Shown one piece after another: positions 1-40,129 of a stretch of DNA of 50,202 nucleotides (position 1 is the stretch's first letter; each line of letters opens with the position of its first letter). Source of the DNA: a virus; IMG/VR virus record IMGVR_UViG_3300017613_000718, positions 1 to 50,202 of that record; one strand, written 5' to 3'. The position numbers were made by a program, and so were the translations under genes. The notes below the pieces were generated by a model. That model saw nothing but the letters and a program-made list of their open reading frames with translations, did not search any database and was not told the origin of the DNA.

Positions 1-121
1 TCGAGCCCGGCACCAAACGTGTCACCGAGATCCTCGACAGCAAGTTCCCATGCGACTTCAGCGTGAACTTCCGTGGCCAACGTGGCGGGGAAGCGAAGGT
101 GAACGACGAGATCCAGCTCAA
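1..121. repeat. terminal direct repeat copy 1 (identical to 50082-50202); marks circular closure or terminal redundancy
   Basis: Compared base by base with the last 121 nt of the window: identical. Confidence 0.97.
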
Positions 122-542
122 TATCAACCGCTTGCTGCTCGACCAGCAACCTTGGGCTATCGACGCAGGCTATGACCCCGACAACGTGGTGCTCACCATC
201 GACGACCACTCATGCGGCGGGTATACCCGTGCCACACCCATCGCTCTCTGGGCAGAGCACCTCGACGAAGCCACCATCCTCAACACAGTGCCTGCGAACG
301 GGAAGAAACCTGCCATCCACACCGTGGCTGAGATCATCGCGTATCACGAAGGCGCACGTCTGGAATACGAAGCCGCACCGCATGAAGAGAAAGTGAAAGG
401 TGACGCTCGTGCCGAGGTCGCCGCACGCATCCCGCTTGTGGGTGAGACTCAGTGGAACCACTCGAAGTGCGACAAGATGTGTGAGGTGCGAGACATTTGC
501 AATAAGCTTGTGCGCGAGCATGGGAGGCCGGGAGATGTTTGA
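1..542 (+). CDS. Cas4/RecB-family PD-(D/E)XK exonuclease, C-terminal part (same gene as 49676-50202)
   Basis: The frame is open from base 3. Motifs: GQVDV and EILDSKF (D...DxK nuclease motifs), QLNINRLL (Q-motif-like), and C-terminal CDKMCEVRDIC (Cx3Cx5C), which with the N-terminal Cys gives a 4-Cys Fe-S pattern. The GTG at 63 listed in the ORF track is not the true start. Confidence 0.75.
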   Translation, partial: EPGTKRVTEILDSKFPCDFSVNFRGQRGGEAKVNDEIQLNINRLLLDQQPWAIDAGYDPDNVVLTIDDHSCGGYTRATPIALWAEHLDEATILNTVPANGKKPAIHTVAEIIAYHEGARLEYEAAPHEEKVKGDARAEVAARIPLVGETQWNHSKCDKMCEVRDICNKLVREHGRPGDV

Positions 543-786
543 ACCTGTTGCACAATCTCAACGTATCAACAAAGCACTCAATCCCAAAATGACCCAGTTG
601 GCAGACGACTTGGCGAGCATCGCTAATGAACTGGAGGTCAGCTTAACCAGTTTGTACCAATATGTAGCGCTCCAGATATTACAAACGGTTCCATTAGCGA
701 GAATGGCAGCTGCGCGAGACGACGCTGCTGCTGTACGTCACGCAGAAGCCACGATGGACGACGGCTACGGATCGGTGGACGACTAG
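535..786 (+). CDS. hypothetical protein (83 aa)
   Basis: ATG 535 is preceded by gggaggccgggag. It overlaps the nuclease stop by 8 nt and lies in frame with track ORF 400..786. Confidence 0.55.
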   Translation: MFEPVAQSQRINKALNPKMTQLADDLASIANELEVSLTSLYQYVALQILQTVPLARMAAARDDAAAVRHAEATMDDGYGSVDD

Positions 787-788
787 CC

Positions 789-2729
789 ATGCCACGCACT
801 AAACGACACGTACCCGGCGTTGGCCCCTACACCGCCCCCTTACTATGGATCGGTGAAGCCCCCGGCCAGACCGAGGAGCGCCGAGGCATTCCATTCGTAG
901 GTGTCTCAGGCAAACGTGTGCGCCACCACCTCAGCAACCATGGCATCGATGCTGAGGACATTCGTATCAACAACGTCATCCCCATCAACGTGGGCAAGAT
1001 CACAGCTCAAAACCGTGACACCTTGTGCGCCTCCTGGTGGGACAACATCACTGACGACCTGGCTCGCATGTCTCCCCGAGTGATCGTGGCTTGTGGCGGC
1101 GTTGCGTTAAGGAGACTGACGAGCTTAACTGACATTACTAACGAATCGGGAGGGGTGATACACTCTAGCACTATCGGTGAAAGTATCACGATCAAGCAGC
1201 GCCGCCTTCCCACACACTTACCTGACGATACCCTTGTGATCCCCATCGTCCACCCTGCCGGCATCATGCGAACCAAGGTGGGCGGTGGCTGGGATCACTT
1301 CGATCGTATCGTGGCACGCATCGCACGCTACGCTACGGGTGCTCTCGAACTACGGCCCCCCAAGCCACATGTCGTCACTCGATTCAAGGCCGACGTACTC
1401 GACCGCGTCCTCACCGAAGCCAGCATCGTCTTCATCGACACCGAATACAACATCGACGACCACATCCCATATCTCATCGGCCTGACCACTGACAAGCTCG
1501 ACGAGCACACCGTCTACAGCTTCGCTCCACACGAGCGCTACGTCGATGTCCTGGCCAAGCACTTCGCCCGCTCAGACCTTCTAAAGGTAGCGCACAACTA
1601 CATGGCAGACGTGCAAGCTCTTCACACTCTAGGTGTGCGTTGGCACCACCCATCGTATTGCACGATGCTTGCTGCGAGCGCGCTCTATCCTGACCTACGA
1701 ATAGGCTTGAACCACGTTGCGCTTTTGTACCTAGACCACATCCGTAATTGGAAGGACATGGCGCACGATGATCCTGAATACAATGCGCTGGATGTGATGT
1801 ATATGCGGATGCTCTTCCCAACGCAACGTCAAGAGATAGCGGCTGCTGGGATGCAACGCCTCCTTACTGAAGAGATCTTCCCGGTCGCACCACTATGCAC
1901 TGCGCTTGAGGTTCGAGGGCTGAGAGTGGATGCGGATATCCAGGCTGAGATGATCGCTGAACGGCAGGCTGAATACGAAGCGACTGAGGCACGGGTCCAA
2001 GATGCTGTGAAGGAGATGTGCGCGAGCAAAAGCGCTGCGATAGAGATCGAGATCCAGCACTTCCAACACGAACACGATTATTATGAAGCGGGCGCTCGTC
2101 GAGCGGTCACCATCCCATGCCCGCTGCACCCTGACTACATCGGCGTGCGTAAGAAGCGATTCGCTACCACCACAGCATGCGAATGCGCCACGATCTACGA
2201 AGCCGTGGCACCCCAACGTGAAGGCATGCGCGAGAAGAAAGCGCAGGTTACCAAGCAGAAAACGAAGCTCAAGAAGTGGACCACCAAAGGCTTCAACCTG
2301 CTCTCGTCCCATGATCTCCGCTGGCTGTTGTACAATGAAGAGGGCTACGGTCTGCCGCCACAACGTAAAGATGGCCGCATCACGACCGACGCAGACGCCG
2401 TGGCCAAGCTGAAACTGATGCTCTATGACAATCGTGCGAAGATCAAATCTAAGTACCATCGCACGAACTGGGAGGAGATCACCAAGGTGCTCAAGGACAT
2501 CAAGCATTGTCAGCACCTGCGGAAGTTCATCAGCACCTTCTTGCAACCTCCAGTAGACGCGCATGGTATAGCGCACCCGCCATATAGACCATGGGGTGCT
2601 GGATCAGGTCGCCCAGCATCAGGGAAGGATGCGGTCGTGGCCTCTGATCGAGGCGCATCAGAGTACACGTTCAACGCCTTGAATATTCCAGACAAATGTC
2701 GGCGGATCTTTATCCCGCACAAACGGTGA
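789..2729 (+). CDS. family-A DNA polymerase, part I: UDG-like domain + 3'-5' exonuclease + N-terminal portion of the polymerase domain
   Basis: GEAPGQTEE..PFVGVSG..HPAG are family-4/5 UDG-fold motifs. FIDTEY, HNYMADVQAL and YNALDV are Exo I-III. The C-terminus GSGRPAS...FNALNIPDKCRRIFIP aligns by eye with Klenow TGRLSS..PNLQNIP..RRIRQAFIAP and stops just before motif A. Confidence 0.85.
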   Translation: MPRTKRHVPGVGPYTAPLLWIGEAPGQTEERRGIPFVGVSGKRVRHHLSNHGIDAEDIRINNVIPINVGKITAQNRDTLCASWWDNITDDLARMSPRVIVACGGVALRRLTSLTDITNESGGVIHSSTIGESITIKQRRLPTHLPDDTLVIPIVHPAGIMRTKVGGGWDHFDRIVARIARYATGALELRPPKPHVVTRFKADVLDRVLTEASIVFIDTEYNIDDHIPYLIGLTTDKLDEHTVYSFAPHERYVDVLAKHFARSDLLKVAHNYMADVQALHTLGVRWHHPSYCTMLAASALYPDLRIGLNHVALLYLDHIRNWKDMAHDDPEYNALDVMYMRMLFPTQRQEIAAAGMQRLLTEEIFPVAPLCTALEVRGLRVDADIQAEMIAERQAEYEATEARVQDAVKEMCASKSAAIEIEIQHFQHEHDYYEAGARRAVTIPCPLHPDYIGVRKKRFATTTACECATIYEAVAPQREGMREKKAQVTKQKTKLKKWTTKGFNLLSSHDLRWLLYNEEGYGLPPQRKDGRITTDADAVAKLKLMLYDNRAKIKSKYHRTNWEEITKVLKDIKHCQHLRKFISTFLQPPVDAHGIAHPPYRPWGAGSGRPASGKDAVVASDRGASEYTFNALNIPDKCRRIFIPHKR

Positions 2730-2794
2730 CGATATGATGCTCGTAGACGTGGCACTACCCAATCCAATCTGGGATTACATAGATGGAGGGATAG

Positions 2795-3043
2795 ATGATG
2801 AAGTGGAAGACGCTACTAGCGATAGCGGTACTGACGTTGGCACCACTGGTGTCGATGCTGGAGCAGGACTGTCAAGCGCGGTTCGACGCACCAAGCTCAA
2901 GAGTGGAGGCCACACAGACTGACGCACCCGATGTAATCCTGGATGATGGAGCACCGATCAAGGTAGCAGACGACATCTACCAACCGGTACCACTGGAGTA
3001 TGACCCGTTCACCGACGACGCTGATCCGATTAGTGATGATTGA
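2795..3043 (+). CDS. small secreted, very acidic protein (82 aa)
   Basis: SD ggaggg upstream of ATGATG. N-terminal signal-like segment KWKTLLAIAVLTLAPLVSM. The C-terminal half is D/E/P-rich. Confidence 0.6.
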   Translation: MMKWKTLLAIAVLTLAPLVSMLEQDCQARFDAPSSRVEATQTDAPDVILDDGAPIKVADDIYQPVPLEYDPFTDDADPISDD

Positions 3044-3121
3044 CCATTGAAGGCGGCTGGTGCGGCAACAAGTCGATGGCTCGACCTAAGGATGCGCTAG
3101 CCACGCATACCCGCACCGGTC

Positions 3122-3138
3122 GCCTTCGTTGAGAGGAG
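3122..3138 (+). repeat. boundary repeat copy 1 (GCCTTCGTTGAGAGGAG), contains the SD of the downstream gene
   Basis: This 17-mer is shared with 3323-3339 and 3754-3770. Confidence 0.9.
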
Positions 3139-3142
3139 AAAC

Positions 3143-3322
3143 ATGGAAGTAACAGGACAGGTAGGCAGAGAGCGGTTGGCTTCGATTATCGAAGGCAAGA
3201 TTCAAGCGCTTGAAAGTGACATCAACGTGTACCGGTTGTTCTTGAAACTGTTCGCCGACATCGAAGAAGGCAGTCCAGACGAGGAACGGTTGTGGTCCTA
3301 CTTCGTGAAGTTAGGCCGGTGA
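3143..3322 (+). CDS. hypothetical helical protein (59 aa; below the ORF-track cut-off)
   Basis: Hand translation: MEVTGQVGRERLASIIEGKIQALESDINVYRLFLKLFADIEEGSPDEERLWSYFVKLGR. ATG is 5 nt after gagaggag. The TGA is the first 3 nt of repeat copy 2. Confidence 0.6.
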   Translation: MEVTGQVGRERLASIIEGKIQALESDINVYRLFLKLFADIEEGSPDEERLWSYFVKLGR

Positions 3323-3339
3323 GCCTTCGTTGAGAGGAG
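3320..3339 (+). repeat. boundary repeat copy 2 (TGAGCCTTCGTTGAGAGGAG)
   Basis: Exact 20-mer, identical to 3751-3770. It begins with the upstream gene's stop codon and ends with the SD of the next gene. Confidence 0.95.
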
Positions 3340-3345
3340 ATACGC

Positions 3346-3750
3346 ATGAGTGAAGTGGATATCAAAGTATCTGAAGATCTAATTCGTGGGATCATCGAAA
3401 CCAAAGTCCAGACTGCTATTACGGAGGCGTTGTCCGAAGAGTCGAGCGTTGTCGAGAACGTTGTGACCGCCGCGCTGACGCAGAAGGTTAGCAGCACGGG
3501 CAGCGTGTCCCGCTACGCAACAGACAACAAGTTCTCGTACCTGGACGTGCTTTGCAAGAAGTTGATACGGGAAGCTGCTGAGGCGGCTATAGCAAGGTGG
3601 GTGGTGTCACGGAAAGAGGTGCTCGAAAAGGAGTTCTTGCGCCAGCTACAGACCAAGAAAACGTCCAGCCTAATGGTGCGAGCCTGCGTGGAAGGGCTGA
3701 CTGGAGCCGTGAAGGAGAAGTGGCGGTTCTCTGTGAGCTTCACTGATTAG
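3346..3750 (+). CDS. hypothetical protein (134 aa)
   Basis: Track ORF, preceded by the GGAGATACGC translation-initiation motif. Confidence 0.75.
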   Translation: MSEVDIKVSEDLIRGIIETKVQTAITEALSEESSVVENVVTAALTQKVSSTGSVSRYATDNKFSYLDVLCKKLIREAAEAAIARWVVSRKEVLEKEFLRQLQTKKTSSLMVRACVEGLTGAVKEKWRFSVSFTD

Positions 3751-3770
3751 TGAGCCTTCGTTGAGAGGAG
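3751..3770 (+). repeat. boundary repeat copy 3 (TGAGCCTTCGTTGAGAGGAG)
   Basis: Exact 20-mer, identical to 3320-3339. Confidence 0.95.
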
Positions 3771-3775
3771 GGGAG

Positions 3776-3997
3776 ATGGACGTAGGACTAAACCGACATC
3801 ACTCCAGGGTGTACTGGTTCATCAGGGACAACCCCGGAGCGCCACGGTCAACGACTATTGCCGAGGAGTGCGGTTACGAGATCAAAGACACTCGGCTGCT
3901 CCTCGCTGAACTTAGTAGACGCGGCTATGTGCAGCGAAGTAGACGCGGGCTATACCGACCCGCTGCTGACTTTCCAAGCATCGACCCAGCGCGTTGA
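3776..3997 (+). CDS. small winged-helix/HTH DNA-binding protein (73 aa)
   Basis: ATG 3776 follows gagaggagggg; the TTG at 3761 in the track lies inside the repeat. The pattern RVYWFIRDNPGAPRSTTIAEECGYEIKDTRLLLAELSRRGYV resembles MarR/wHTH recognition helix plus wing. Confidence 0.6.
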   Translation: MDVGLNRHHSRVYWFIRDNPGAPRSTTIAEECGYEIKDTRLLLAELSRRGYVQRSRRGLYRPAADFPSIDPAR

Positions 3998-4005
3998 GGT
4001 GAGGG

Positions 4006-4173
4006 ATGGAGATTGTATGGTTCGTGATTGGCTTCTTGAGCGGTGCTCTCGGGATTAACTATTGGTGGCTACGCTTCAACATGAAGAAGGCGCTGAGGAA
4101 TATGTACAACTTGGGCTACTCAGACGGGAAGCAGGGTGTGAGCCTGTGCCCGCCCCAACCCAGCGAGGAGTGA
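4006..4173 (+). CDS. small membrane protein (55 aa)
   Basis: Hand translation: MEIVWFVIGFLSGALGINYWWLRF... SD gaggtgaggg upstream. One predicted TM helix. Confidence 0.55.
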   Translation: MEIVWFVIGFLSGALGINYWWLRFNMKKALRNMYNLGYSDGKQGVSLCPPQPSEE

Positions 4174-4176
4174 GGG

Positions 4177-4266
4177 GTGACTATCTTCCTACTCAGTGGT
4201 GTTGTATTTGCGATACTGCTCGTAGTGGTGCTGGTGGTCACAGATACTGATGACTATGACTGGTAA
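4177..4266 (+). CDS. possible micro-membrane peptide (29 aa)
   Basis: GTG lies 4 nt after the previous stop and is preceded by gaggagtgagg. Sequence: TIFLLSGVVFAILLVVVLVVTDTDDYDW. Confidence 0.35.
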   Translation: MTIFLLSGVVFAILLVVVLVVTDTDDYDW

Positions 4267-4296
4267 CCCCCAACCCCGACCGGCAGTGAGGGTGAG

Positions 4297-4491
4297 ATGA
4301 CGTTGCACATTCCAGTGTGGGCTATACCGACAGCATTGACGGTGGGTTGCTTGTTCATGTTGTTCCGTCCCACAGGCGAGCACAACTGGCTGTCCGACGC
4401 CTTTACAACACTGGTGCGGCTGTTGTGGCTGATTCCAATCGGCTTCGTGTGGGCGATCTACTTTGCCGTGTTGTTGTGGCTGGCCGACTAA
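4297..4491 (+). CDS. small membrane protein, 2 TM (64 aa)
   Basis: Track ORF with SD gagggtgag and two hydrophobic helices. Confidence 0.65.
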   Translation: MTLHIPVWAIPTALTVGCLFMLFRPTGEHNWLSDAFTTLVRLLWLIPIGFVWAIYFAVLLWLAD

Positions 4492-4506
4492 CCCGAGGAG
4501 GACGGA

Positions 4507-4749
4507 ATGATTGAGGAGCGCGAACTACTAGACAGCATGCAAGATGCTTATCGTTTACGAAAACAACTCTCCATCGCCCTCAAGGCGTTGGGGGAGATCG
4601 CTAATGACCCGCACTGTGACTATTCCGTTGTGGCTGGCGGTGGATCATACGGCACTGGTGTAGCAGACGGTCACCGTTGCGCCGCCAAGAAAGCCCGCAC
4701 CGCAATAGCCAAGATCAAGGGGGGAGATGAGCAAAGAACAGACACTTAA
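4507..4749 (+). CDS. hypothetical protein (80 aa)
   Basis: Track ORF with SD gaggaggacgga. Confidence 0.7.
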   Translation: MIEERELLDSMQDAYRLRKQLSIALKALGEIANDPHCDYSVVAGGGSYGTGVADGHRCAAKKARTAIAKIKGGDEQRTDT

Positions 4750-4990
4750 AGACTTTGAGGCTGAGTTCCGCCAACTGTTCCCGGTTGGCATGCGAAGCGG
4801 CACAGACGCCACACTGGAGTTCATCATTGGATTCGAGTTGTTCAATACGCGACCGTACCACAACTACGAAGATTGGTCTCAGGGATGGCGACTGACCGTT
4901 GGCGATGTGGTCATTGAGACCGAATACTTGCACGAGTTGTTGCCGAAATACCGCAACCAACGCGACCAGGACGGAGGCGGGGATGAGTGA
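4727..4990 (+). CDS. hypothetical protein (87 aa)
   Basis: Track ORF with SD aaggggggag. Confidence 0.65.
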   Translation: MSKEQTLKDFEAEFRQLFPVGMRSGTDATLEFIIGFELFNTRPYHNYEDWSQGWRLTVGDVVIETEYLHELLPKYRNQRDQDGGGDE

Positions 4991-5138
4991 CGAACGCATC
5001 GAAACGTGCTGTGAGTGTGACGTACCCACCGGCAGGGCTGGCAGACACGATGACTCGCTCTATTGTGCCTGTGGCGAAGGTCCGTTCTGCGAAGAATGCT
5101 ATGACAAGCACGACGATAAAAGGTGCAGTGATGAGTAA
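4983..5138 (+). CDS. Cys-rich mini-protein (51 aa, starts MSDER)
   Basis: In frame with track ORF 4899..5138. ATG overlaps the previous stop (ATGAGTGA). Sequence: CCECDVP...CACGEGPFCEECYDKH. Confidence 0.5.
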   Translation: MSDERIETCCECDVPTGRAGRHDDSLYCACGEGPFCEECYDKHDDKRCSDE

Positions 5139-5310
5139 AGAACAACGGTATCGGTGGCTTATACGTTGTAAATGCGGCAAGCACTGGACGGTCGTCGTAG
5201 AAGGCCGTGATGGACCGACAGACAAGCAGGCGCGCTGCCGTCGATGTAAACAGGTATCCGATAATGTGTCGATGGGGATGCGCGGAACAGGACTAGTGCG
5301 CGATGAGTGA
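5131..5310 (+). CDS. Zn-ribbon mini-protein (59 aa, starts MSKEQ)
   Basis: In frame with track ORF 4987..5310. Contains CKCG...CRRC. The start overlaps the previous stop. Confidence 0.5.
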   Translation: MSKEQRYRWLIRCKCGKHWTVVVEGRDGPTDKQARCRRCKQVSDNVSMGMRGTGLVRDE

Positions 5311-5485
5311 CGAACGGAAGGCGCGGTGTAGCTACTGTCAAGGACTAGGTTGGTGCGAGGGGACTGCATCGGAACACGACCCGCGTTGTGACGGTAGCTG
5401 TAGCGTCGGCTGCCCCGTGCCAGTACAGATACAGGTTGAGTGTGAAGTGTGCGAAGGATTAGGTGTGGAGAACGACAATGACTGA
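5303..5485 (+). CDS. DnaJ-type zinc-finger mini-protein (60 aa, starts MSDER)
   Basis: Two CxxCxGxG motifs (CSYCQGLG and CEVCEGLG), as in the DnaJ cysteine-rich domain. Confidence 0.6.
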   Translation: MSDERKARCSYCQGLGWCEGTASEHDPRCDGSCSVGCPVPVQIQVECEVCEGLGVENDND

Positions 5486-6254
5486 CCAAGAACGCTGCGG
5501 CTGTGGGTTTGAGGATTGCCCGCTGTGCTACCCGGATGCCACCCAACCCCGCAAGCCGCTGCCGTGTAACTGCGGTAGTCAGTACAACCGCGAACGGCTA
5601 CGTGAAGCCGGTGAGCGGTTCGCGGAGAAAGTGGAAGAGCGTATGAAGCAAGACCGCAAGCCGCCGGGGGTGGTTTGGCTCGACTGCACTAACAGCAATC
5701 ACGGGTACTACGAACTCAAAATGGAGCGTACCCGCGACACCGACACCCCCTACGTCCCGCAGGCGGATTACGAGGTGATGCAAAAAGCATTCACGAAGCT
5801 GAGTAACGTGTTGGTCGGCTTCTACCCACCTGATATACCGTGGGACGCAAGCCTATCAGCAGACGAGATGGCATTGAATATTCGCAGTTCCCATGAGCAA
5901 CAACTCCGCGAGGCGAGGGAAAGGATCAAGTCATGGGAGGTCCATTGCAAAGACTTTGCCGAACAGGTAGATGAACAGACAACCAAAATTGAACTGCTCA
6001 AAAAAGCGGTAGCATCTCGACACGACTACGGCCCCGCATCACCGGGCGAGCAGGAATGGGCATGGCAACAGTTCTGTAGGCGTAGCGGTTGGGCACCTGA
6101 TTCGCATCCGTCAGCAAAGGACGCCTACGTCAACGGCTATTGTGACGGCGACACTTACAGTGAAGGTGACGAGCAACGCAAGATACTCCGCAAAGAGATC
6201 GAACAGCTGAAGAAAAAGCTAACCGCTGCCGACCAACGCTACTACGAAACATGA
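5478..6254 (+). CDS. hypothetical protein with N-terminal Cys cluster and coiled coil (258 aa)
   Basis: ATG 5478 overlaps the previous stop. N-terminus CGCGFEDCPLC...CNCG. The C-terminal heptad-like region ends in EIEQLKKKL. Confidence 0.7.
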   Translation: MTDQERCGCGFEDCPLCYPDATQPRKPLPCNCGSQYNRERLREAGERFAEKVEERMKQDRKPPGVVWLDCTNSNHGYYELKMERTRDTDTPYVPQADYEVMQKAFTKLSNVLVGFYPPDIPWDASLSADEMALNIRSSHEQQLREARERIKSWEVHCKDFAEQVDEQTTKIELLKKAVASRHDYGPASPGEQEWAWQQFCRRSGWAPDSHPSAKDAYVNGYCDGDTYSEGDEQRKILRKEIEQLKKKLTAADQRYYET

Positions 6255-6264
6255 GGAGGTTAAC

Positions 6265-6912
6265 GTGACCAAGGATCGAAAATACACAATCCTGATGGTG
6301 GTCTGCTTAGCTATCGCTATCGCCGCCATGACAGCCACCGTCATACGCGGCCAAACCACCGGCAACCTCAACGTGCTGTGGGACGCAGTAGACCACCCTA
6401 ACCTCGCTGCATACGAAGTCTCAGCCACCGATGTTGACCCCTTCACCACGACTGAAACCGCCGCCTCACTCACTGTGCCACCGTGCGCTGCAGCGATCGT
6501 CAACGTGCGCTCCTTGCCAGCTGACACCGATCTCAACACCCCGAGCCCTTATGCTGTGCTCGAAGCCTGGCCCGACATGGAAATCACTGAAGTCACACCG
6601 CTCGTTCTCGACCTCGCGAACAACACATTAGACCTCATCATCACAGGCCAGAACATCCAACCTGGCACCGACATCATCGCAGGTGAGGAAGGCACACCAA
6701 CCTGGGACTACGCATTCATCGAAGATCAAACAGATTGTGGCGCGATCACCGGCACGCTTATCGCACCAGATACAGCACAGATAGGTGACCAAGTGCTGTT
6801 GACCGTGAAGGCACCCGATGGGCAGACGGTGGTCGCACCGCAGATGGTGGCTGTGATTATGACGGTTGAGGATCTCGATTCACCGACCGGGTTGAGAGCT
6901 GTTCGTCCATAA
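6265..6912 (+). CDS. membrane-anchored protein with FN3/Ig-like repeats (215 aa)
   Basis: GTG start after gaggaggttaac. N-terminal TM segment ILMVVCLAIAIAAMTATVI. Beta-rich T/V/D repeats follow. Confidence 0.65.
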   Translation: MTKDRKYTILMVVCLAIAIAAMTATVIRGQTTGNLNVLWDAVDHPNLAAYEVSATDVDPFTTTETAASLTVPPCAAAIVNVRSLPADTDLNTPSPYAVLEAWPDMEITEVTPLVLDLANNTLDLIITGQNIQPGTDIIAGEEGTPTWDYAFIEDQTDCGAITGTLIAPDTAQIGDQVLLTVKAPDGQTVVAPQMVAVIMTVEDLDSPTGLRAVRP

Positions 6913-6935
6913 CCAACGTCCAAGGAGATACGCGC

Positions 6936-7439
6936 ATGTCAAAACCAATCGAGAAACCTGACCCCAACCCTGAGTACAAGGTCCGAGAGCTACCAGGTGC
7001 GCTCTATTGCCGCAAGTGCGAGGTCGCCAAGCTCACCGACCCACAAGACGAGCGGCTCTTCAGGCGCATCAGCATGCGAGGTAGAGGGCAAGATCCGTCA
7101 GTGGAGCAGATACTCAAGGATCTACCTGGCCTCACAGCCACACAAGCCAAGGCCACATTGGTGTGCTGGTTCAATTGGGGCTGGTACGACTGGGGCATCA
7201 CGCTCACGAAAGGGTGGCTCACTGATTGGGGACGGTCGGTCATGCAACAGCCTTGCACTTGCGAGGGGATGGAGCGTTTCGCTAAGTGCAGGGATCTCCC
7301 ACGAAGGCTGACTTGGGAACGTGTCATGGGGCGAATGGTTGAGTGTCTTGAACTGGACCCGCCGCCTCCACCTAAGGAAAAGAAGTCATCAAAGAAGTCA
7401 TCAAAGAAGAAACGCACACCTCGAACGGTGCAAACATGA
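6936..7439 (+). CDS. hypothetical protein with Lys-rich tail (167 aa)
   Basis: Track ORF preceded by GGAGATACGCGC. C-terminus PPPPPKEKKSSKKSSKKKR. Confidence 0.7.
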   Translation: MSKPIEKPDPNPEYKVRELPGALYCRKCEVAKLTDPQDERLFRRISMRGRGQDPSVEQILKDLPGLTATQAKATLVCWFNWGWYDWGITLTKGWLTDWGRSVMQQPCTCEGMERFAKCRDLPRRLTWERVMGRMVECLELDPPPPPKEKKSSKKSSKKKRTPRTVQT

Positions 7440-7756
7440 ACAAAACAGAAGCTACTTTCACTCGTGCTTATCCAGGTACTGAAGACCGCCAGCTGGTCAT
7501 CGAAGCTGGAATGGAAAAGGTGGGTGACACTTTTGATCCATGGATCGACATCATCGTGCGCGTGAAGATCGCACGAGAAGGTGATGTGGTCCGTTATCGA
7601 CGTGTCCGCACGCAGATCACCGGGATGGAAGCGTATGCGTTGCTCGACGAGCTGTTCACAGCCACGCACGCAGCGCACGGGCCGCATGTTGACCCGCGAC
7701 AAGGGCGGTTGCCGTTCGACGACACCGAGGACGACTCCAATGACCCGCCTCGTTGA
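7436..7756 (+). CDS. hypothetical protein (106 aa)
   Basis: Track ORF with an ATGA overlap to the previous gene. Confidence 0.65.
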   Translation: MNKTEATFTRAYPGTEDRQLVIEAGMEKVGDTFDPWIDIIVRVKIAREGDVVRYRRVRTQITGMEAYALLDELFTATHAAHGPHVDPRQGRLPFDDTEDDSNDPPR

Positions 7757-7883
7757 GTGGTGCGCGGGGGCACACAGCTTCGGTTGGGGTTTCGCCCTTG
7801 GTGTGAGCTGTACGTTAGGTGTTCTGGGACTGGTGGGTTGGTGGGTGTGGATAACACCTGAGGAGGACGAGGATGCCAGCTAA
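7740..7883 (+). CDS. possible small membrane protein (47 aa)
   Basis: Internal ATG of track ORF 7581..7883. Sequence: MTRLVEWCAGAHSFGWGFALGVSCTLGVLGLVGWWVWI. It overlaps both neighbouring genes. Confidence 0.35.
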   Translation: MTRLVEWCAGAHSFGWGFALGVSCTLGVLGLVGWWVWITPEEDEDAS

Positions 7884-8841
7884 CATCTACGTCGCCGCAG
7901 ACTTCTCACAAATGGAATCCTTCCTCACCGCATACTTCGCTCAAGACGACGTGATGTGGACCGAGCTACAAGACAGCCTCAAGCCTGGTGGCATCAAGGT
8001 CCACGCACTCAACGCCGCACTGCTATACGACATAGACCCTGCTGATGCCAAGACCCACGAGGTCGAGATCCAAGGCCAGATCACCACCGCATACAAAGGC
8101 GGCAAGAAGGTCTCGCATCTCATCAACTACGGCGGCCAGCCTAAGCTGCTGCACAAGCAACTGTGGCTACCATTGGAGTTCTGTTACGAAGCGCATCGTA
8201 AGATCACCGGCAAGTACGTCCCCACCACACGATGGCGAGAACGGCTGGTCGAGAAAGTCTACGGTGTGATTCAATACCTATGCAACTCTTGCGGGCACGA
8301 GTCCAATATCGGTGGAGTCTGTCCACATTGCACACGTTCCAATAAGCCTGTGCCGATGGTCTACCAAGGCTGGTTGGAGCCCCCGACACGCGAGCTGTTC
8401 ACACCTTTCTTGCGTCGTCGCCGGTATCTGGGTAGGCGTAATGATGGCGCGAACGCTCTCGCGTCCCAACTTCCCCAATCGTGTGGAGCTTCTATCTGGT
8501 ACCGCACGCTTCAACGACTGAACGGATTCACCGCTACCAGCGAAGGCTTTGAGCCTTGGCCTATCCCAACTGGATACCGTATGCTTACGCAACCTTATCA
8601 AGCATTCGAGTACCAGAACCCCATTGCCACCGGCACATACGACTCGTTTGTAGTTGAATGCGCTCCAGCTGACCGTGATACAATCGCCGCTTGGCTCGCG
8701 TGGACAATGGAACAAGCCTGGCCTCAGCTTGGTGGGATTCGTATCCCGGCTGAGGTTGAGTGGGGTGAGAATTGGTACGACCTACGTGAGATGGAGTACC
8801 AGGCTTTCAGCGCGACGAATCCTTTTGAGGAGGCAGCATGA
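7873..8841 (+). CDS. family-A DNA polymerase, part II (palm/fingers: motifs A, B, C) with zinc-ribbon insert
   Basis: ANIYVAADFSQMES is motif A, GGKKVSHLINYGG is motif B, and TYDSFVVE is motif C-like. An inserted CNSCG-x10-CPHC lies between motifs B and C. SD gaggaggacgagg. Confidence 0.85.
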   Translation: MPANIYVAADFSQMESFLTAYFAQDDVMWTELQDSLKPGGIKVHALNAALLYDIDPADAKTHEVEIQGQITTAYKGGKKVSHLINYGGQPKLLHKQLWLPLEFCYEAHRKITGKYVPTTRWRERLVEKVYGVIQYLCNSCGHESNIGGVCPHCTRSNKPVPMVYQGWLEPPTRELFTPFLRRRRYLGRRNDGANALASQLPQSCGASIWYRTLQRLNGFTATSEGFEPWPIPTGYRMLTQPYQAFEYQNPIATGTYDSFVVECAPADRDTIAAWLAWTMEQAWPQLGGIRIPAEVEWGENWYDLREMEYQAFSATNPFEEAA

Positions 8842-9296
8842 CCGAACGTCCGTTTCAAATCTCGCATGTTGTTAATGTACTTGATCAAATGGCAGACGGT
8901 GGTTACGGCACTCGTGACGCCGTGAACAATTTCCTCAGGCAGAAGTCTTCCTCGGCTGTGTCGATCGGTGACATGGGCAACTACAACATCAGACGGTACA
9001 CCTTGAACGAGGTGATAGCGCTGGCGGCGCTCGTGCCGTTGACCTCGGTGTTGGGTACACGTAACCGGCAGGACTTCACACCGAAACTGGTAAAGTTTCT
9101 TGACAGATTCGACTCGAATCTTCCAACCTTCACGCACCTATATGTAGTAAAGGCACTATACGTGCGGTCGAAGCCCATGATCTGCACCTCAGCTTTGTTA
9201 GAGGAGGACTTACCTGAACATGCCGTGGTCGTGGACCTTCAACGTGTGATCAAGGCTGCTTTGCGGTTGAAGGCCGATCCGGAAAGTGTGGCATGA
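8838..9296 (+). CDS. hypothetical protein (152 aa)
   Basis: Track ORF with an ATGA overlap to polymerase part II. Confidence 0.7.
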   Translation: MTERPFQISHVVNVLDQMADGGYGTRDAVNNFLRQKSSSAVSIGDMGNYNIRRYTLNEVIALAALVPLTSVLGTRNRQDFTPKLVKFLDRFDSNLPTFTHLYVVKALYVRSKPMICTSALLEEDLPEHAVVVDLQRVIKAALRLKADPESVA

Positions 9297-9643
9297 GCTG
9301 CGCGGGCATGTTCCGAATAATCTGGACCACCGACATGGTGCTACCTGACCTTAGCAAATATTGGAGAGACGCCATTGACTGGAGATGCGTGATGACCGGC
9401 CCTGACACAGAACAACACGGATACTGCCTCAACTGTGGTGACTACGACCTACTCGTCACCTCCACACCAGCTTACTGTGCCGCCTGCGCCGCCACCTGCG
9501 TCGAACGTGACCTCGTGGCGGCCTCGCATCAAGCCAAGGTGCCCGTCGCTCAGCACCGGCTCCTGGGCTTCAGGCACTGCATCCACCCGAAGATCTTGAA
9601 TGGCCGCTGCCTGGCCTGTGGTAAAACCCCTAAGGAGGACTGA
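9293..9643 (+). CDS. Cys-rich/Zn-finger protein (116 aa)
   Basis: Track ORF with CLNCG...CAAC...CLACG. ATGA overlap with the previous gene. Confidence 0.65.
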   Translation: MSCAGMFRIIWTTDMVLPDLSKYWRDAIDWRCVMTGPDTEQHGYCLNCGDYDLLVTSTPAYCAACAATCVERDLVAASHQAKVPVAQHRLLGFRHCIHPKILNGRCLACGKTPKED

Positions 9644-9644
9644 A

Positions 9645-9890
9645 GTGGACAAGACCATCTCTGTCACGTACCAATGCCTACAACCTATGCATCGAGATAA
9701 CTCTGAGCCTGGCCGGTGCCAGAAGCAAGCTGGCGTCAAGATGCGCGTGAACAGTCCCGCCTTCCCCCTGCCTGACATGCGGTGCCTTGAGCACCCCGAT
9801 GCTCCCATGGAGATCCTCGACATCCACGTCGAAGACACCTCGTTGATAGTAGATCCCCGCCAACAGCCCGTAGCCGTCAAGCCATCATGA
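9645..9890 (+). CDS. hypothetical protein (81 aa)
   Basis: GTG 9645 lies 6 nt after aaggagga, in frame with track ORF 9600..9890. Confidence 0.5.
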   Translation: MDKTISVTYQCLQPMHRDNSEPGRCQKQAGVKMRVNSPAFPLPDMRCLEHPDAPMEILDIHVEDTSLIVDPRQQPVAVKPS

Positions 9891-9891
9891 G

Positions 9892-11304
9892 ATGCCGTAC
9901 CTCGTTGACGACAACGACGCCTCCCGTCAAGCACTCATCGAGCTGCTCCAGGGCTTAACACCTGATAAAGTTGATGCTGAACTCGCGGCGACGGTCAAGG
10001 AAAGCATTGAGCTTGCATGGCAAGGGCAGCCTGACGCCTCATGGAACTCTATACGTGACGCATACTGTAAAGCCTTCGGCTCTGAAATCACGATCGCAGA
10101 GGCGTCGGTCACCAAGACCATACGTCCGTTCCGTGAGGTCGTCACCGACCAGTGGTTCAGCGACTACCTTGAATACTCCAGCGTGTCCGAAGCACCGGCT
10201 CAATTCCACTTCGGGGCCGTGCTCACTCTCATTGCAGGCTCACTACGAAGAAGGCCCTTACTCGACTGGGAGGCTCGTCCGACTTATTGCAACCTGTTCA
10301 GCTTGCTTGTCGGCTCTACCGGTTCACGTAAAGGTAGCGCGATCAAGACCGCTCAGTCCATGGTCCAGACCGTCCTTGCAACCAACGTCCTGCCCAATGA
10401 AGGCACCCACCAAGGGTATGCTGAGGCCCTGAAGCACCGCTACACAGACACAGGCATGAGCGACGGGCTGATCATCTCGCCCGAGTTCAAGGTGTTGTTG
10501 TCTAAAAATGAAAAGCACAAGGAAGCGCTCGTAGCCTGGCTCACTGACTGGTACGACTGCGATGATGTGTGGGAACGGGCGCTCAGGAGTGTGGACGAGC
10601 CCTACCTGCTAGAGCGCCTATGTGTGAGCGTACTCGGTGCGAGCAACATGCGGTGGCTCAGGCAAACACCTGAAGATGCGATCCTTGGTGGCTTCTTTCC
10701 ACGCTTCTTGATGTTCGTGCAACCTGAAGGGCTGAAGATCTGGGGCGATGCGTTCCCGAAGTTTAATCGCAAGCTATATGAGAAGTTGCAACAGGAACTT
10801 GAAGAACGCCTGGCGAACGTACCTGATGTCATCCGCTTCGATGCTGAAGGCCAGGCGTGGATGGAGGACTGGTACAAGGGGCCGCATCGCGGCTTGAGAG
10901 AATCTACCGGGGATGAGCAGATGCACGCCTGGTACGACCGCAAGCAGGCCGCATTGATGAAGGTGGCTATTATCTTGCAGCTCGTGAACGGTGGCCGACA
11001 GGATGTGGTCGAGGTCCAGTACCTGATAAAGGCGCAGAAGATCACCGACTGGTGCGACTGGTCGGTAGCCTATGTGTATAACAAGCTAGGTGTGGTGGGT
11101 AGTGGTGAGCTACTTGCTGACATCGTAGGCGTATTAGAGAGGCGTGCCCACCACCGCGCCACAGACCGAGTGGTCAAGAAGAACTTGTCACATAAGTATC
11201 TAGCGCCGATGATCAACAAGGGCCTGGCCTCGTTGAAAGAGATCGGCGTGGTCAAACGTGAGCACTCGGCTGAAGGTGGAGCGGAGTGGGTTTTGGTGGA
11301 CTAG
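9892..11304 (+). CDS. DUF3987-like P-loop NTPase (putative replicative helicase/initiator)
   Basis: NLFSLLVGSTGSRKGSAIK is a Walker A-like motif and GLIISPEF is Walker B-like. Size and layout resemble phage/plasmid DUF3987 proteins. No primase motifs were seen. Confidence 0.55.
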   Translation: MPYLVDDNDASRQALIELLQGLTPDKVDAELAATVKESIELAWQGQPDASWNSIRDAYCKAFGSEITIAEASVTKTIRPFREVVTDQWFSDYLEYSSVSEAPAQFHFGAVLTLIAGSLRRRPLLDWEARPTYCNLFSLLVGSTGSRKGSAIKTAQSMVQTVLATNVLPNEGTHQGYAEALKHRYTDTGMSDGLIISPEFKVLLSKNEKHKEALVAWLTDWYDCDDVWERALRSVDEPYLLERLCVSVLGASNMRWLRQTPEDAILGGFFPRFLMFVQPEGLKIWGDAFPKFNRKLYEKLQQELEERLANVPDVIRFDAEGQAWMEDWYKGPHRGLRESTGDEQMHAWYDRKQAALMKVAIILQLVNGGRQDVVEVQYLIKAQKITDWCDWSVAYVYNKLGVVGSGELLADIVGVLERRAHHRATDRVVKKNLSHKYLAPMINKGLASLKEIGVVKREHSAEGGAEWVLVD

Positions 11305-11579
11305 GCCAACCAGACGGTAACGAGCGCGTTGGTAACTGTGAACGCCGCCAGGTAGATCGTCACCGAACGTGGAAACGCCAGGTGTTGAAAGTCGTCCTCA
11401 ACCGACGCGGTGTACAAGAAGATGCTGTCACTCGTGTCGGCTTTGATCTCCACCGTGCCTCCTTGAGCAGTGCCCGTGACCGAGATGCCTTGAATGTTCA
11501 TCCAGGTCATGCCCAAGCTGGCGGCTGTGAAGGACTGGTCACTCCAAATGATGTCGTTACGTTGCGTAGTCGCTGCCAT
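11301..11579 (-). CDS. small beta-rich protein, last gene of the late arm (92 aa)
   Basis: Track ORF with SD gaggag 5 nt upstream of ATG. Its stop overlaps the stop of the plus-strand gene. Confidence 0.65.
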   Translation of the reverse strand: MAATTQRNDIIWSDQSFTAASLGMTWMNIQGISVTGTAQGGTVEIKADTSDSIFLYTASVEDDFQHLAFPRSVTIYLAAFTVTNALVTVWLA

Positions 11580-11614
11580 GATCTCTCCTCAATTCGCGTG
11601 TGTAGTATAGCATG

Positions 11615-14600
11615 TTAAGGGCGCTCATCCTGGTCGCCTTGAATCGCCTGTAGTGGCGACGTGATCGTCTGCAGCTTCTCACCAAACCACTCAGCCTGGT
11701 TCGATGACATCTCATTTCCTAAGTATTCACCGAAGTCCCAGAGCTGACGTAAGCCTGGCAATATGTCGTGGGCCAACCCATCGATATCTTTCGCAAACGA
11801 GTCGCGTGCATCTGGATTGGTCGTCAAATGCCAAAACGTGGTCGCTGCATTCACCAAGTCAGACATGATCGGCCCGCCAGTGTAAATCACAGCGTCCTTG
11901 TTTAGACTCCATTTACCAGTGTCGTTGTTGTAGAACACCATTGGGAGTAAGGACACCCCAATGCGATTCAACCAATAAGCTTCACCCTTCTCACTGCCTG
12001 CAAAGCCCATCGTCATGCCGTAGATCGAAGACAACCCCGCAACATACGCTCCGTATTTAAGGAACCGCACATCAATCCCACCAGCCGGGTTGTGTGCTGA
12101 CCTGAGCAAGGACGACAACCGATTAGTGGCGAACTCCATTTGGTGTAACGTGAATGTCTGGAGTGCGCCTGCCGCACCGCCTACTGGTGTGCGTAACAAC
12201 ATCCCACGCGACTCTTTACCAAGTGAAAACTGTGTGGTGGACACGACATCTTTCATGTACTGCTGAATCACTTCCTGTCGTGACGGTGCGCCTTCACGTA
12301 ACGCCATCGTGACTGGGTCAGACATCGGTGTTTGGGACAACGTGCGCTCAGTCCGTGCTAAACGCTGGCGAGCACGATCAGTGCGGGACTTGGTGAACTT
12401 AGATCCAACAGCGCCTGCGGCAGCACCGACAGCCAAACCCTTCAGCGCAGCACCGAACCTGTCCTCAACGTCTTCGCCCTGTTCGCTGTATGCCCCTAAG
12501 AACCCGCCAGCACCAGCACCGGCAGCCACGCTCTCGACGAATTGCACACCACGCTTAGCCTGTCCTGCAAATGCTTGCTGGGCTGACCGTTCAGCCGCTG
12601 CTGCTGTGGTCACACGCAAGAAGCGTTCAACAGTGCTGAACGGCAGGATCGAAGTCTCTGCAAATTTCATCATGGCAGATTTGAGCACTTTAGCAGGGCC
12701 GTCACCATGCATGATGTGCCCTGTTGGTGAGAGCGTTCGCATGATGTGCTGCGTGTTCATGTTTCCAATGCCAAGCTCACGCACCACGCGCAGCATGTTC
12801 CGACCCTTCAGGTTAGGATCTAACCACGCTAGTTTAGGAAACGTCTCAGCAACCTTGCCCTTCACTACACGCGAGCCGCCGACAAACACATTGCCCAAAC
12901 CGACATCAGCTGACGAGTTCACGATCTGCGTGAGGTTCGTCATCGCACTCATGAACGATCCACCGAGCTTGGAGAAGAACGCCCATGATCGAAGCGCATT
13001 CGCTGCCCCGCCGACCACACCCTGCTCCTGCATGCGCTTACCAAGGTGGCCCAACAGCATTGACGGAACTGACGTGCCGCCCATTGCATCTGCCATACTC
13101 GTGAAGTCAACACCGACCTTGTTCAACATGTTGCTTATGCGTAGGGTGCTGAGGCTGGGGATGCCCATGACATCAAGGTACAATCTCCCGAGCTGGCCTG
13201 CGAGAACCTCTTGCCGCTTGCCAAGCTGGTTCCAATACGACGGCCCCAAGTTGGCAATCATCTCATCAAGGTGGATCTTGCGTGTTGCGCCCGCAATGTA
13301 GGTGTGCATGGCTTCGTCGAGAGTCATCATCTCAGTGAGGGGCGTCGCTGCTGTGCGTTGATAGATCGAACGAAATATCTTCGACGCAGACAAGCCTTGC
13401 CCATGCGGGATCAGCAGGTCGTCCTTCCAACCTGTACGTACACCAAACTGCTCTTGCAGTAACTGCCGAATGTCAGCTACCGACTTGGAGGAGTAGTACC
13501 AAGGGAAGTAGTCCTCGATATATTGGCCTTTTTCTAACCCGAGCTGATCCGCAAATGTGTCAAGTAGTGTTCGTAAACGACCGTGCGTGGTGAGCATCTC
13601 AGGGTTAGCTTTGCCGTAACGCTCACGGAAAACCGAGTCCTGCATCATCCGCTTCAGGACTTCCTTTTGCTCCAGATTCAAGCCTCTTACGATATCGGTG
13701 TATTCGTTTGCTGCGATCTCATACCCACGACGAGAACTCTCAGCTGCAGTGGTGATCGAGTGGTAGCCTCTACCAAGCAAGTCGGCGTCAAGTTGCCCTC
13801 GCGCCCCTTGAGACTCGAACTTTTCGATGAACCGCAGGATGCGAGTGGTTGGCGCGAACCAGTCACCAGCATGAATGGCCCCGGATTCAACTTTACCTTT
13901 GCTGACGTTGAGGCTGGTGTTGTCGATCTCGGCTGCGACCTCTTGAATGCGTTTCGCGTTCTTACTAAGTTGTTGGCGTTGCCACTTGTTGCCCCGACGT
14001 GCGAAGTCTGCAAGCGGTATTGGGGCGGACGAGGCGGCGACCTGTGCAGTGAGCAGCATGTCCCGTGCATGCGGTACGTCAACAGCTTGCGAGAGCGGTG
14101 ACGACGCATCGTCTGCGAGTAACCGTAGGTCCAAATTGTAGGCCCGAGGACGTGCAAGGAAGGGTGTCGCCGTTACGCTAAGGTAGCCACGCCACCGTTT
14201 CAGCACGTTGTTTGTGAGTTGCTCTTCAGTAAGCTTGGCGGGCGCGGCCTTACCTGCGCGGGGTTTTGGCTGCCGACGAGTCTCATCAGCGGTAAGCTTT
14301 CGCACCTGCTTGTTGAACAACGCAAACGTGGTGTCATAGGACTCTTGCGTCACGGCATGCGGCGCGTACTTCTGCATGACACGGTCAAGCTCAGGCTGGG
14401 TTCGAGCAACTTGAATGCGCCATGTTCGATATTGGTTCTGCACGTATTCCGGCATGCTGTTGAAACGTGCAACACTCAGCTCAACAGGGTCGAGCTTGCC
14501 GGTCTTACGGTTCTTTGTCCAGCGGGGCTTGATCTTGGTGCCGGTGCGTTCAGCAGTGTGACCAGCTACCGTTTGCTTGCGCCGATAGCCGGTTTTCCAA

Positions 14601-38965: not shown

Positions 38966-39070
38966 GACGTAAATTCTTTCACGCAATAACTGTGCTTGAT
39001 GAGGGGGAGTTGTTGCGTAAAACCGAGGTCGAGAGTTAATGGGAACTATATTTCCCTCCCCCCTTACAAT

Positions 39071-39237
39071 CCCCCCTATAAAGAGTCTTTAATGATGCGG
39101 TTTGGGTTGGCACAGGATATCGTGAGAACGAAACTAAAGCGAAAGTGCATATAGTATTAGATCGATTTTGTGATAGTTAAAATTCCTTCAGCACATCTCA
39201 AATTTTGCGCTACATTTTTTGCAACTCTTTAGGGGGG
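39071..39237. repeat. inverted repeat CCCCCCTA(TA)AAGAGT / ACTCTTTAGGGGGG flanking an AT-rich 137-bp core
   Basis: 39071-39086 versus 39224-39237. The arms are complementary except for a 2-nt TA insertion. Confidence 0.8.
39151..39180 (-). promoter_or_regulatory. candidate sigma70-type leftward promoter
   Basis: Minus strand reads TTAACT-18 nt-TACTAT. Confidence 0.3.
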
Positions 39238-39256
39238 TACGGCGGTCGTGGTGGAA

Positions 39257-39272
39257 GGGGGGCCTACCCCCC
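39257..39272. other. perfect G6-CCTA-C6 hairpin
   Basis: ggggggcctacccccc, lying directly upstream of the first iteron. Confidence 0.85.
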
Positions 39273-39279
39273 GTTCATT

Positions 39280-39755: not shown

Positions 39756-39860
39756 TGATCTCTTTATATGGTGGCTTTCGCTTTATGTTCGTGCTCGCCG
39801 TTAGCAATAGGTGTGCCAAAGCATGGTTGAATAAAAGACTAGATTGGTCTACTGAAATTG

Positions 39861-39889: not shown

Positions 39890-39917
39890 TAAGGCACACT
39901 TTCAATAGGAGGAAACC

Positions 39918-40118: not shown

Positions 40119-40129
40119 AGGATAAAACC

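Follow-up and report, generated by a model that had tools for sequence, protein, structure and literature searches.

A family-A DNA polymerase encoded as two genes cut in front of motif A, with a 5.1-kb gene island between them, in a phage genome

The family-A DNA polymerase is the textbook single-chain polymerase, and the 50,202-nt viral record IMGVR_UViG_3300017613_000718 of IMG/VR (the window, by which we mean this whole stretch) raises the question of whether such an enzyme can be made from two chains. A preliminary description of the window had read two open reading frames (ORFs), 5.1 kb apart, as parts of one polymerase cut exactly in front of motif A; both were found, with the termini it had quoted, and our analysis supports its interpretation in the essentials. 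The two ORFs probably encode separately translated PolA subunits that assemble non-covalently and that arose from an insertion at a permissive loop of the palm, which later gathered cargo. Our observations cover the tiling of the halves, their conservation, the recurrence of the split, the modelled fold of the two halves as one chain and the lack of any device that would join them. Positions 1-121 are an exact direct repeat of 50082-50202 (121 nt); this terminal repeat closes the contig on itself, so that the window represents a complete phage genome (about 50.08 kb). The genome encodes a terminase, a portal, virion proteins and a DUF3987 primase-like protein; no second family-A polymerase was found elsewhere in the complete 50 kb. 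The polymerase locus contains the following elements, where UDG stands for uracil-DNA glycosylase.

789-2729, plus strand: polA part I, 646 amino acids (aa), with the UDG domain, 3'-5' exonuclease, thumb and first part of the palm, ending in NALNIPDKCRRIFIPHKR before the stop
813-1316, plus strand: family-4 UDG-like domain, residues 9-176 (GEAPG 852-866, PFVGVSG 891-911, HPAG 1251-1262)
1434-1796, plus strand: 3'-5' exonuclease motifs (Exo I IDTEY 1434-1448, Exo II HNYMADV 1593-1613, Exo III YNALDV 1779-1796)
2118-2186, plus strand: Cys/His cluster C-x2-H-x16-C-x-C, CPLHPDYIGVRKKRFATTTACEC, a thumb insertion at residues 444-466, putatively metal-binding
2601-2726, plus strand: last conserved palm elements of part I, with motif 1 GSGRP (its Arg corresponding to Klenow R668), motif 2 FNALNIPDKCRRIFIP and, at the end, HKR; TGA stop at 2727-2729
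2730-7872, plus strand: island between the halves, 5,143 bp, with about 12-17 co-oriented small ORFs
7860-7866, plus strand: Shine-Dalgarno (SD) sequence GAGGAGG, with 6 nt between it and the start codon (ATG) of part II
7873-8841, plus strand: polA part II, 322 aa, with the motif A strand, fingers and motif B, zinc ribbon, motif C and C-terminal palm, starting with MPANIYVAADFSQMES
7888-7920, plus strand: motif A YVAADFSQMES (D10 = Klenow D705, E15 = E710), aligned to Klenow and T7 gp5
8089-8136, plus strand: motif B AYKGGKKVSHLINYGG (K78 = K758, Y86 = Y766, H82 at the F762 'B3' position, Y74 at R754)
8281-8331, plus strand: zinc ribbon CNSC-x9-CPHC between motifs B and C (C137, C140, C150, C153)
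8629-8658, plus strand: motif C TGTYDSFVVE (D257 = Klenow D882, Y for H881, S for E883)

Since GAGGAGG precedes the ATG of part II, this half has its own translation start. When searched against Pfam DNA_pol_A, part I gave an N-terminal match of 12.9 bits and part II one of 24.0 bits at profile positions 152-261 (cut-off 34.3). The PHROG 17 DNA polymerase profile was covered by part I at 535-1002 (E 2.5e-29) and by part II at 1009-1241 (E 3.8e-13). Aligned to the contiguous 909-aa relative P0022, part I corresponded to residues 2-629 and part II to residues 634-903, leaving unaligned just the last 3 residues of part I (HKR) and the first 4 of part II (MPAN); the junction alignment contained 9 contiguous proteins together with 10 of part I and 13 of part II. 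These coordinates confirm, at the level of alignment, that the halves tile a family-A polymerase flush, with zero overlap and zero missing segment, as the preliminary description had judged by eye. About 290 residues of the polymerase domain (the thumb and motifs 1 and 2) lie in part I, and the break falls between Klenow residues ~699 and 700.

The joined chain was modelled with AlphaFold2 (AF2), which yielded a predicted local distance difference test (pLDDT) of 33 from the single sequence and of 93.2, with a predicted template modelling score (pTM) of 0.89, from a multiple sequence alignment (MSA) of 60 sequences. Foldseek ranked the large fragments of Bst and Klenow highest among the PDB matches to the joined model (E ~1e-21, target template modelling score 0.77-0.80). 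Together with the PHROG 17 scores, this modelled fold places the predicted enzyme in family A, of the Klenow type. The junction between residues 646 and 647 is situated in a loop between a strand at 641-642 and the motif A strand at 651-657. Judging from Klenow-fold anatomy, this is the turn of a beta-hairpin of the palm; the break is in a surface loop, and the palm sheet would be completed across the two subunits by fragment complementation.

For the analysis of conservation, we used 14 part II proteins and, for part I, 16 relatives. The UDG domain of part I matched Pfam PF03167 with 66.3 bits (cut-off 24.3) and family-4 UDGs in the PDB (E 1.5e-8), and its three motifs, already noticed in the preliminary description, were nearly invariant across the family. 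In a single pairwise alignment to 1ui0, one of the two aligned Cys positions among the [4Fe-4S] ligands was kept, and the domain began past the N-terminal CxxC of the free-standing family-4 enzymes. The exonuclease residues D217, E219, Y331 and D335 were invariant, with a weak match to PF01612, and so were R608, N629, N632, P634 and R638 of the palm segment. Most relatives, both split and contiguous (P0022 among the latter), also had the Cys/His cluster in the thumb, which was missing from locus L002.

In part II, the equivalents of Klenow D705, E710, K758, Y766 and D882 were all invariant, which agrees with the earlier assignment of motif A, motif B and a motif C-like stretch to this ORF. Motif A has the signature DxSQxE in the form ADFSQME, with D10 and E15 unchanged throughout; motif B, canonically RxxxKxxxFxxxYG, has kept K78, Y86 and the next Gly; and in motif C both Y256 and D257 were invariant. 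Since motifs A and C are both on part II, both catalytic aspartates are there too. Relative to the canonical enzyme, there are four clade-wide departures: R754 to Tyr, F762 (B3) to His, H881 to Tyr and E883 to Ser. The YDS in place of HDE, pointed out in the preliminary description, occurs as TYDS throughout the clade and in contiguous relatives; HDS and HDA are also seen in contiguous UDG-PolA relatives. The zinc ribbon described there is real, with its four Cys residues invariant in all 14 proteins and modelled at pLDDT 93-96, although its spacing is CxxC-x9-CxxC and not x10. The ribbon was also identified in the contiguous enzymes P0072, P0074, P0078 and P0085, which in an exhaustive profile search scored as high as the split ones and read through the junction, and it was absent from the contiguous sister clade. 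Because contiguous enzymes share both the YDS motif C and the zinc ribbon, neither is a consequence of the split.

As a side observation, the B3 position (Klenow F762) governs dideoxynucleotide discrimination; His at B3 and Tyr for R754 were both invariant in the split clade, and the B3 His was also seen in contiguous P0022, P0023 and P0026. The B3 residue has been reported as F, Y or L in 19 published PolA clusters.

More than 20 relatives shared the split, their gaps measuring 54-1,382 bp; in these, both halves were intact ORFs with no internal stops and the break was at the same alignment column. These relatives were 35-48% identical over the full length; in the database searches, stand-alone part I relatives were 624-670 aa (35-44% identity) and stand-alone part II relatives 302-355 aa (40-47%), whereas contiguous relatives were 717-920 aa with about 30-33% identity. 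The exact proteins of both halves are listed in the database on 2 contigs. A tblastn search of INPHARED gave no match for part II, and part I matched distant UDG-PolAs only. In all loci with enough sequence, the order was part I, gap, part II, small ORFs, the DUF3987 gene and a giant gene on the opposite strand. The conservation pattern suggests that both halves are under purifying selection and that the split is a recurrent natural state rather than damage; the possibility that part II is a decayed pseudogene in relatives, raised beforehand, was not borne out in any of them. With IMG/VR and metagenome loci included, the gap sizes were distributed as follows.

54-177 bp: about 8 distinct lineages
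About 600-1,075 bp: about 5 distinct lineages
1,382 bp: 1 lineage
5,143 bp: this window only, 3.7 times the next largest gap found, in agreement with the earlier remark that a 5-kb island at the split is unusual

The contents of the gap vary by lineage and include a mini-ORF with seven Cys residues, a DUF4406 gene, a YAcAr gene in another lineage and an HNH gene. The last of these, for an HNH_3 endonuclease, is located immediately after part I in loci L010, L011 and L033. In many relatives (among them L002, L021, L023, L027 and L029), part I closes with an acidic tail that follows PH(P/A), as in ATFVVDIGVLAGELQDDEDNDEN before the stop; part I of the window is without this tail. We also considered L008 as a differently placed split and rejected it, the junction being inside a run of Ns in the scaffold.

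The seven-Cys mini-ORF (C-x2-C-x6-C-x2-C-x2-C-x2-C-x5-C, for example ICKDCHDYRKVCRDCGRCDECSQHAAC) was observed in the gap of at least 8 lineages, where it begins within the 3' end of part I, in a different frame, and stops at the start of part II. A hidden Markov model (HMM) built on it matched these gaps only (E 1e-18 to 1e-22). The window has no such mini-ORF, the best HMM match there having E 0.4. It may be an ancestral resident of the gap or an accessory subunit.

L002, 8956-9180: seven-Cys mini-ORF
L020, 404-631: seven-Cys mini-ORF
L021, 1056-1277: seven-Cys mini-ORF
L022, 260-499: seven-Cys mini-ORF
L023, 1394-1537: seven-Cys mini-ORF
L024, 476-697: seven-Cys mini-ORF
L030, 2167-2367: seven-Cys mini-ORF
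L016, about 9885-10004: seven-Cys mini-ORF

The preliminary description had proposed a search for contiguous or differently split versions, and both were found. An initial tree (100/100 bootstraps) pointed to a single ancient fission and to the zinc ribbon as a synapomorphy of the split enzymes, a scenario overturned by the nesting of contiguous ribbon enzymes within the group. In a tree that included the four contiguous enzymes, monophyly of all split polymerases was recovered in 0/300 bootstraps, while contiguous P0072 grouped with split P0071 and P0010 in 89%. P0072 is encoded by one uninterrupted gene, on a contig of 57.6 kb whose synteny is that of the split relatives. Because the four contiguous enzymes nest among split ones, the split state has changed at least twice in the clade, and the tree topology points to repeated fission and/or precise re-fusion. 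The YAcAr gene in the gap of L010 (5128-5553) is orthologous to a gene at 7465-7830 in L036 (42.5% identity, E 1e-24), which is located just upstream of an intact polymerase gene; the upstream neighbour of P0072, a YAcAr gene, is orthologous to the gene in L010. Some gap cargo thus appears to derive from neighbouring genes, and the orthology hints that the split or its cargo goes back to a rearrangement at the locus, such as a tandem duplication with reciprocal loss afterwards.

A different cut was seen in L038 (1-3215), of another UDG-PolA lineage, where the break is about 30 residues upstream, between motif 1 (NSGRWNSGKMEEAK, then the stop) and motif 2 (...FNSQNIPPSIRDLW). Its gap of about 0.8 kb contains an MTS-like gene (methyltransferase small domain, a weak Pfam match) and a 66-aa ORF, and the break region corresponds to residues 611-630 of the window model, a low-confidence loop. 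Sequence comparison also indicates a refinement of the preliminary description, in that the split is not unique to this genome or its lineage: in the phages MEP401 and QDWS535, PolA is broken at the same column relative to Klenow (~699/700), in the loop before the motif A strand.

The island of the window had been described as about 17 small ORFs led by SD sequences on the same strand. The count was roughly right, although by codon-usage scores about 12 ORFs had a clear in-frame coding signal while 4-6 more were ambiguous.

2795-3043 (or the overlapping alternative 2734-2922), plus strand: well-supported ORF
3143-3322, plus strand: well-supported ORF
3346-3750, plus strand: well-supported ORF
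4006-4173, plus strand: well-supported ORF
4297-4491, plus strand: well-supported ORF
4507-4749, plus strand: well-supported ORF
4727-4990, plus strand: well-supported ORF
5463-6254, plus strand: well-supported ORF
6265-6912, plus strand: well-supported ORF
6936-7439, plus strand: well-supported ORF
7436-7756, plus strand: well-supported ORF
3761-3997, plus strand: ambiguous ORF
About 4899-5485, plus strand: ambiguous Cys-rich mini-ORFs
7581-7883, plus strand: ambiguous ORF
3118-3138, 3319-3339 and 3750-3770, plus strand: three copies of a 19-21-nt repeat, GTGAGCCTTCGTTGAGAGGAG, in a stop and SD context

The 10 largest island ORFs, which were the ones scanned, had no significant Pfam match, and the island ORFs had no homologs in the loci of relatives; by these comparisons, the content of the island appears to be lineage-specific ORFans. 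Each copy of the repeat lies directly upstream of one of three consecutive ORF starts, and the sequence has no other match in the genome (3 found, 0.01 expected), which suggests a local cassette duplication.

Two further observations concern the small ORFs of the island. The mini-ORFs at about 4899-5485 are three very Cys-rich frames in a row (for example MSDERKARCSYCQGLGWCEGTASEHDPRCDGSCSVGCPVPVQIQVECEVCEGLG), two of which have an identical 15-nt start region, GATGAGTGACGAACG, at 4982 and 5302. The ORF at 2734-2922, in the +1 frame after part I, starts with MMLVDVALPNPIWDYIDGGIDDEVEDATSD, which resembles the acidic tail of part I in relatives; it could be a severed or frameshifted tail, and its coding signal is weak.

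A single chain might nevertheless be produced from the two halves by an intron, by trans-splicing, by a split intein, by ribosomal bypassing or by read-through. Introns and inteins are common in phage polymerase genes, and the contiguous relative P0025 (1,034 aa) carries a full intein of about 265 aa, running from C to HN with C following, though in the UDG domain after YITNV; this location led us to reject the P0025 intein as a sign that mobile elements target motif A. An intron was also raised by the authors of MEP401 for the split in that phage (PMC10580990). In the window, no Rfam intron family was found in 1-12000 even at E <= 1, and the 5.1-kb gap is full of co-oriented ORFs with coding signal. 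The junction alignment contained neither N- nor C-intein halves, no Cys/Ser/Thr at +1 and no HN at the break, in line with the preliminary description, and there is no room for an N-intein half of about 100 aa or a C-intein half of about 35 aa because just 3 + 4 residues extend beyond the contiguous alignment. Known ribosomal bypassing spans about 50 nt, compared to 5 kb here. Read-through is excluded because 2-6 stops in the part I frame separate the halves in relatives with gaps of 54-177 bp; a single-stop read-through in short-gap relatives with both halves in the same frame was rejected for the same reason. No excess of promoters or terminators was detected in the island, which fits one polycistronic unit. 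Taken together, we find joining of the halves hardly credible. That the island is a chimera of metagenome assembly, the true gap being as short as in relatives, is highly improbable as well. The window is a metagenomic contig, its island ORFs are without homologs in any relative and its gap exceeds all others by the factor given above. Yet the GC content of the island (0.55-0.57) is uniform with the flanks, although the GC skew turns positive over about 3-6 kb, inside the island (0.12-0.15, the flanks having about -0.05 to -0.10); the codon model of the genome suits most island ORFs; the contig closes by its exact 121-nt repeat; the two database contigs carry the exact proteins of both halves; and the split itself is independent of the island.

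The split polymerase could also be a decaying, non-functional relic in a phage that replicates with the polymerases of its host. Many phages of about 50 kb have no polymerase of their own, motif C is without its Glu and motif B without the equivalents of R754 and F762, and both halves are below the Pfam threshold. We nevertheless judge decay to be very unlikely, given that the ORFs are intact and their catalytic residues invariant in over 20 divergent lineages, that contiguous relatives have these motif variants too and that the codon usage of both halves is typical of the genome. Finally, the halves might function independently, part I as a UDG/exonuclease/DNA-binding repair factor and part II with another partner or in a non-polymerase role. 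Part I has two complete and conserved catalytic domains (UDG and exonuclease) that could act alone, the 5-kb separation could decouple expression, and the acidic C-terminal tails of part I in many relatives are typical of replisome interaction modules. However, part I has kept a thumb and motifs 1-2, which are meaningful only in a polymerase active-site cleft, whereas part II has kept all catalytic residues but is without the duplex-binding thumb. The halves are always found together, with constant order and strand, and contiguous and split forms interleave in the tree, which implies interchangeable function. Independent roles are therefore unlikely.

Several points weigh against two assembling subunits. 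Assembly and activity of the heterodimer, as well as the origin of the split, are what we infer from the observations above. The AF2 model is of an artificially joined chain and so bears on the fold but not on heterodimerisation, and its confidence was driven partly by the contiguous relatives in the MSA. Neither half alone reaches the DNA_pol_A gathering score of 34.3. The four altered conserved residues mean that the catalytic properties could be unusual, though contiguous relatives share them. A mirror-tree comparison of part I and part II distances gave r = 0.11 with star-like distances, a result that is uninformative about co-evolution because all pairs are about equidistant. No homing endonuclease was identified in the island by the Pfam scan, which covered its 10 largest and not its smallest ORFs.

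We consider two non-covalently assembled subunits to be the probable arrangement all the same. Part I would contribute its UDG-like and proofreading exonuclease domains, its thumb and the palm motifs 1 and 2 that hold the primer-template, and part II would contribute the motif A strand, the fingers with motif B, the zinc ribbon and motif C. An insertion of DNA at a structurally permissive loop would have broken the gene, with a free-standing homing endonuclease or a local rearrangement as the most plausible agent. The intergenic slot would then have gathered lineage-specific accessory genes, 5.1 kb of them here, presumably co-transcribed with both halves.

More tentatively, the stretch from motif 1 to motif A of the PolA palm could be a general fission hot-spot, the slot a protected landing pad, and gap proteins or tails recruited factors; we find this combination possible but doubtful. 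The stretch would have been cut independently in several lineages and the split gained and lost within this one, much like cycles of invasion and precise loss of mobile elements. Accessory genes in the slot would share the transcript of an essential gene and could hardly be deleted without loss of the polymerase. The seven-Cys mini-ORF or the new acidic tails may, in some lineages, have been recruited as factors for assembly or replisome interaction; if so, the result would be a true multi-subunit family-A polymerase.

Downstream of part II, the conserved synteny partner in all relatives is the DUF3987 gene.

9892-11304, plus strand: DUF3987 primase/helicase-like gene (Pfam PF13148, E 1.9e-12; PHROG DNA primase)
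11615-17053, minus strand: giant ORF of 1,812 aa with no Pfam or PHROG match

The giant ORF lies directly past the DUF3987 gene and is syntenic with ORFs of 1,800-2,600 aa in all relatives; it could encode an ejection protein, a tail protein or a virion enzyme. Elsewhere in the genome, GC content falls to 0.455-0.495 at 39001-41000, compared to about 0.56 in the remainder, at the point where leftward structural genes switch to rightward. This stretch could be a foreign segment or have a regulatory or origin function.

Among known systems, family-A polymerases from two phage genes have been described in LUZ24-like Bruynogheviruses, where about 2 kb with about 10 small ORFs separates PolA part I and part II (PMC3890496), and in the T7-like cyanophages S-SBP1 and S-TIP37 of clade B (PMC10201439, PMC12695635). 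AF2 suggests that the pieces re-associate (PMC3890496, PMC10201439, PMC12695635). In these phages the break is between the exonuclease and polymerase domains, so that each piece is a complete domain, whereas here the cut runs through the palm and the active-site sheet itself would have to be rebuilt from two chains. A cut in the catalytic region is known for the family-B polymerase of the T4-related Aeromonas phages 25 and 44RR, in which gp43A and gp43B are separated by untranslated sequence or a seg homing-endonuclease cassette, the endonuclease being ambiguous as cause or later invader (Petrov et al. 2010, reviewed in PMC2988022). The same ambiguity applies to the HNH gene in L010, L011 and L033, although gp43 differs in fold and break site and its inserts are small. 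The gp43A and gp43B proteins of phage 25 co-purify and polymerise (PMC2988022).

Non-covalent reassembly into an active enzyme without splicing is also known for an essential enzyme, the NrdA of Aeh1, whose gene is split by the mobile endonuclease gene mobE ("genes in pieces"; PMC3045599). Assembly of NrdA needs new tails that derive from the insertion, whereas the halves in the window have just the 3 + 4 extra residues; many of the relatives have the acidic part I tail. No endonuclease gene corresponding to mobE was detected among the 10 largest ORFs of the island. The fractured genes of environmental phage-like DNA, polymerase genes among them, likewise have halves parted by inserted genes (PMC2677866), but these carry split-intein halves and undergo protein trans-splicing, and the window is without intein blocks.

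In domain architecture, the closest described enzymes are the UDG-PolA fusions of the N4-like cluster 17, SPO1-like and SP15-like groups (PMC10201439; bioRxiv 10.1101/2025.03.26.645540; PDB 9qhs), which share the N-terminal family-4 UDG-like domain followed by exonuclease and polymerase. GEAPG and HPAG are kept as in the "active UDG" groups. All described members are single-chain, and the relation is distant, with the best PDB match to a UDG-PolA at E 9e-4 over the UDG domain only. The window clade is further set apart by the TYDS motif C, the His at B3 and the zinc-binding inserts in thumb and fingers.

The break itself is most closely matched in OM43 phages MEP401 and MEP402 (Zobellviridae), for which a split PolA was noted and an intron speculated, the break not being mapped to motif A (PMC10580990), and in Alcaligenes phage vB_Af_QDWS535 (OK172329). 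In both MEP401 and QDWS535, the break interrupts PF00476 in the loop that leads directly into the motif A strand, and part II starts with MILNADAKALE and MLVSIDAGQIEW, respectively. These enzymes belong to an unrelated PolA lineage without UDG domain or zinc ribbon, show no BLAST similarity to part II of the window and have no detectable relationship to it beyond general PolA homology. Their gaps hold 0-1 small ORF (a TAATG stop/start overlap without cargo in QDWS535), in contrast to the 5-kb island here.

In the reclassification of Czernecki et al. (2023), splitting of PolA was reported at the exo/pol boundary only and called a first (PMC10201439). What is new compared to that work is a cut through the catalytic palm that appears to be under selection in many lineages, that arose or reverted repeatedly and that recurs at the same loop in unrelated PolAs. 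With between 0 and about 17 genes in the slot, an essential gene would here be sheltering accessory genes, which makes the locus a test case for the tolerance of essential enzymes to mobile-element insertion. Annotation of polA and marker-gene surveys will miss or mis-size such enzymes because part II alone is below the Pfam threshold. The break may also serve as a natural, evolution-tested split site for engineering two-piece polymerases of the Klenow fold.

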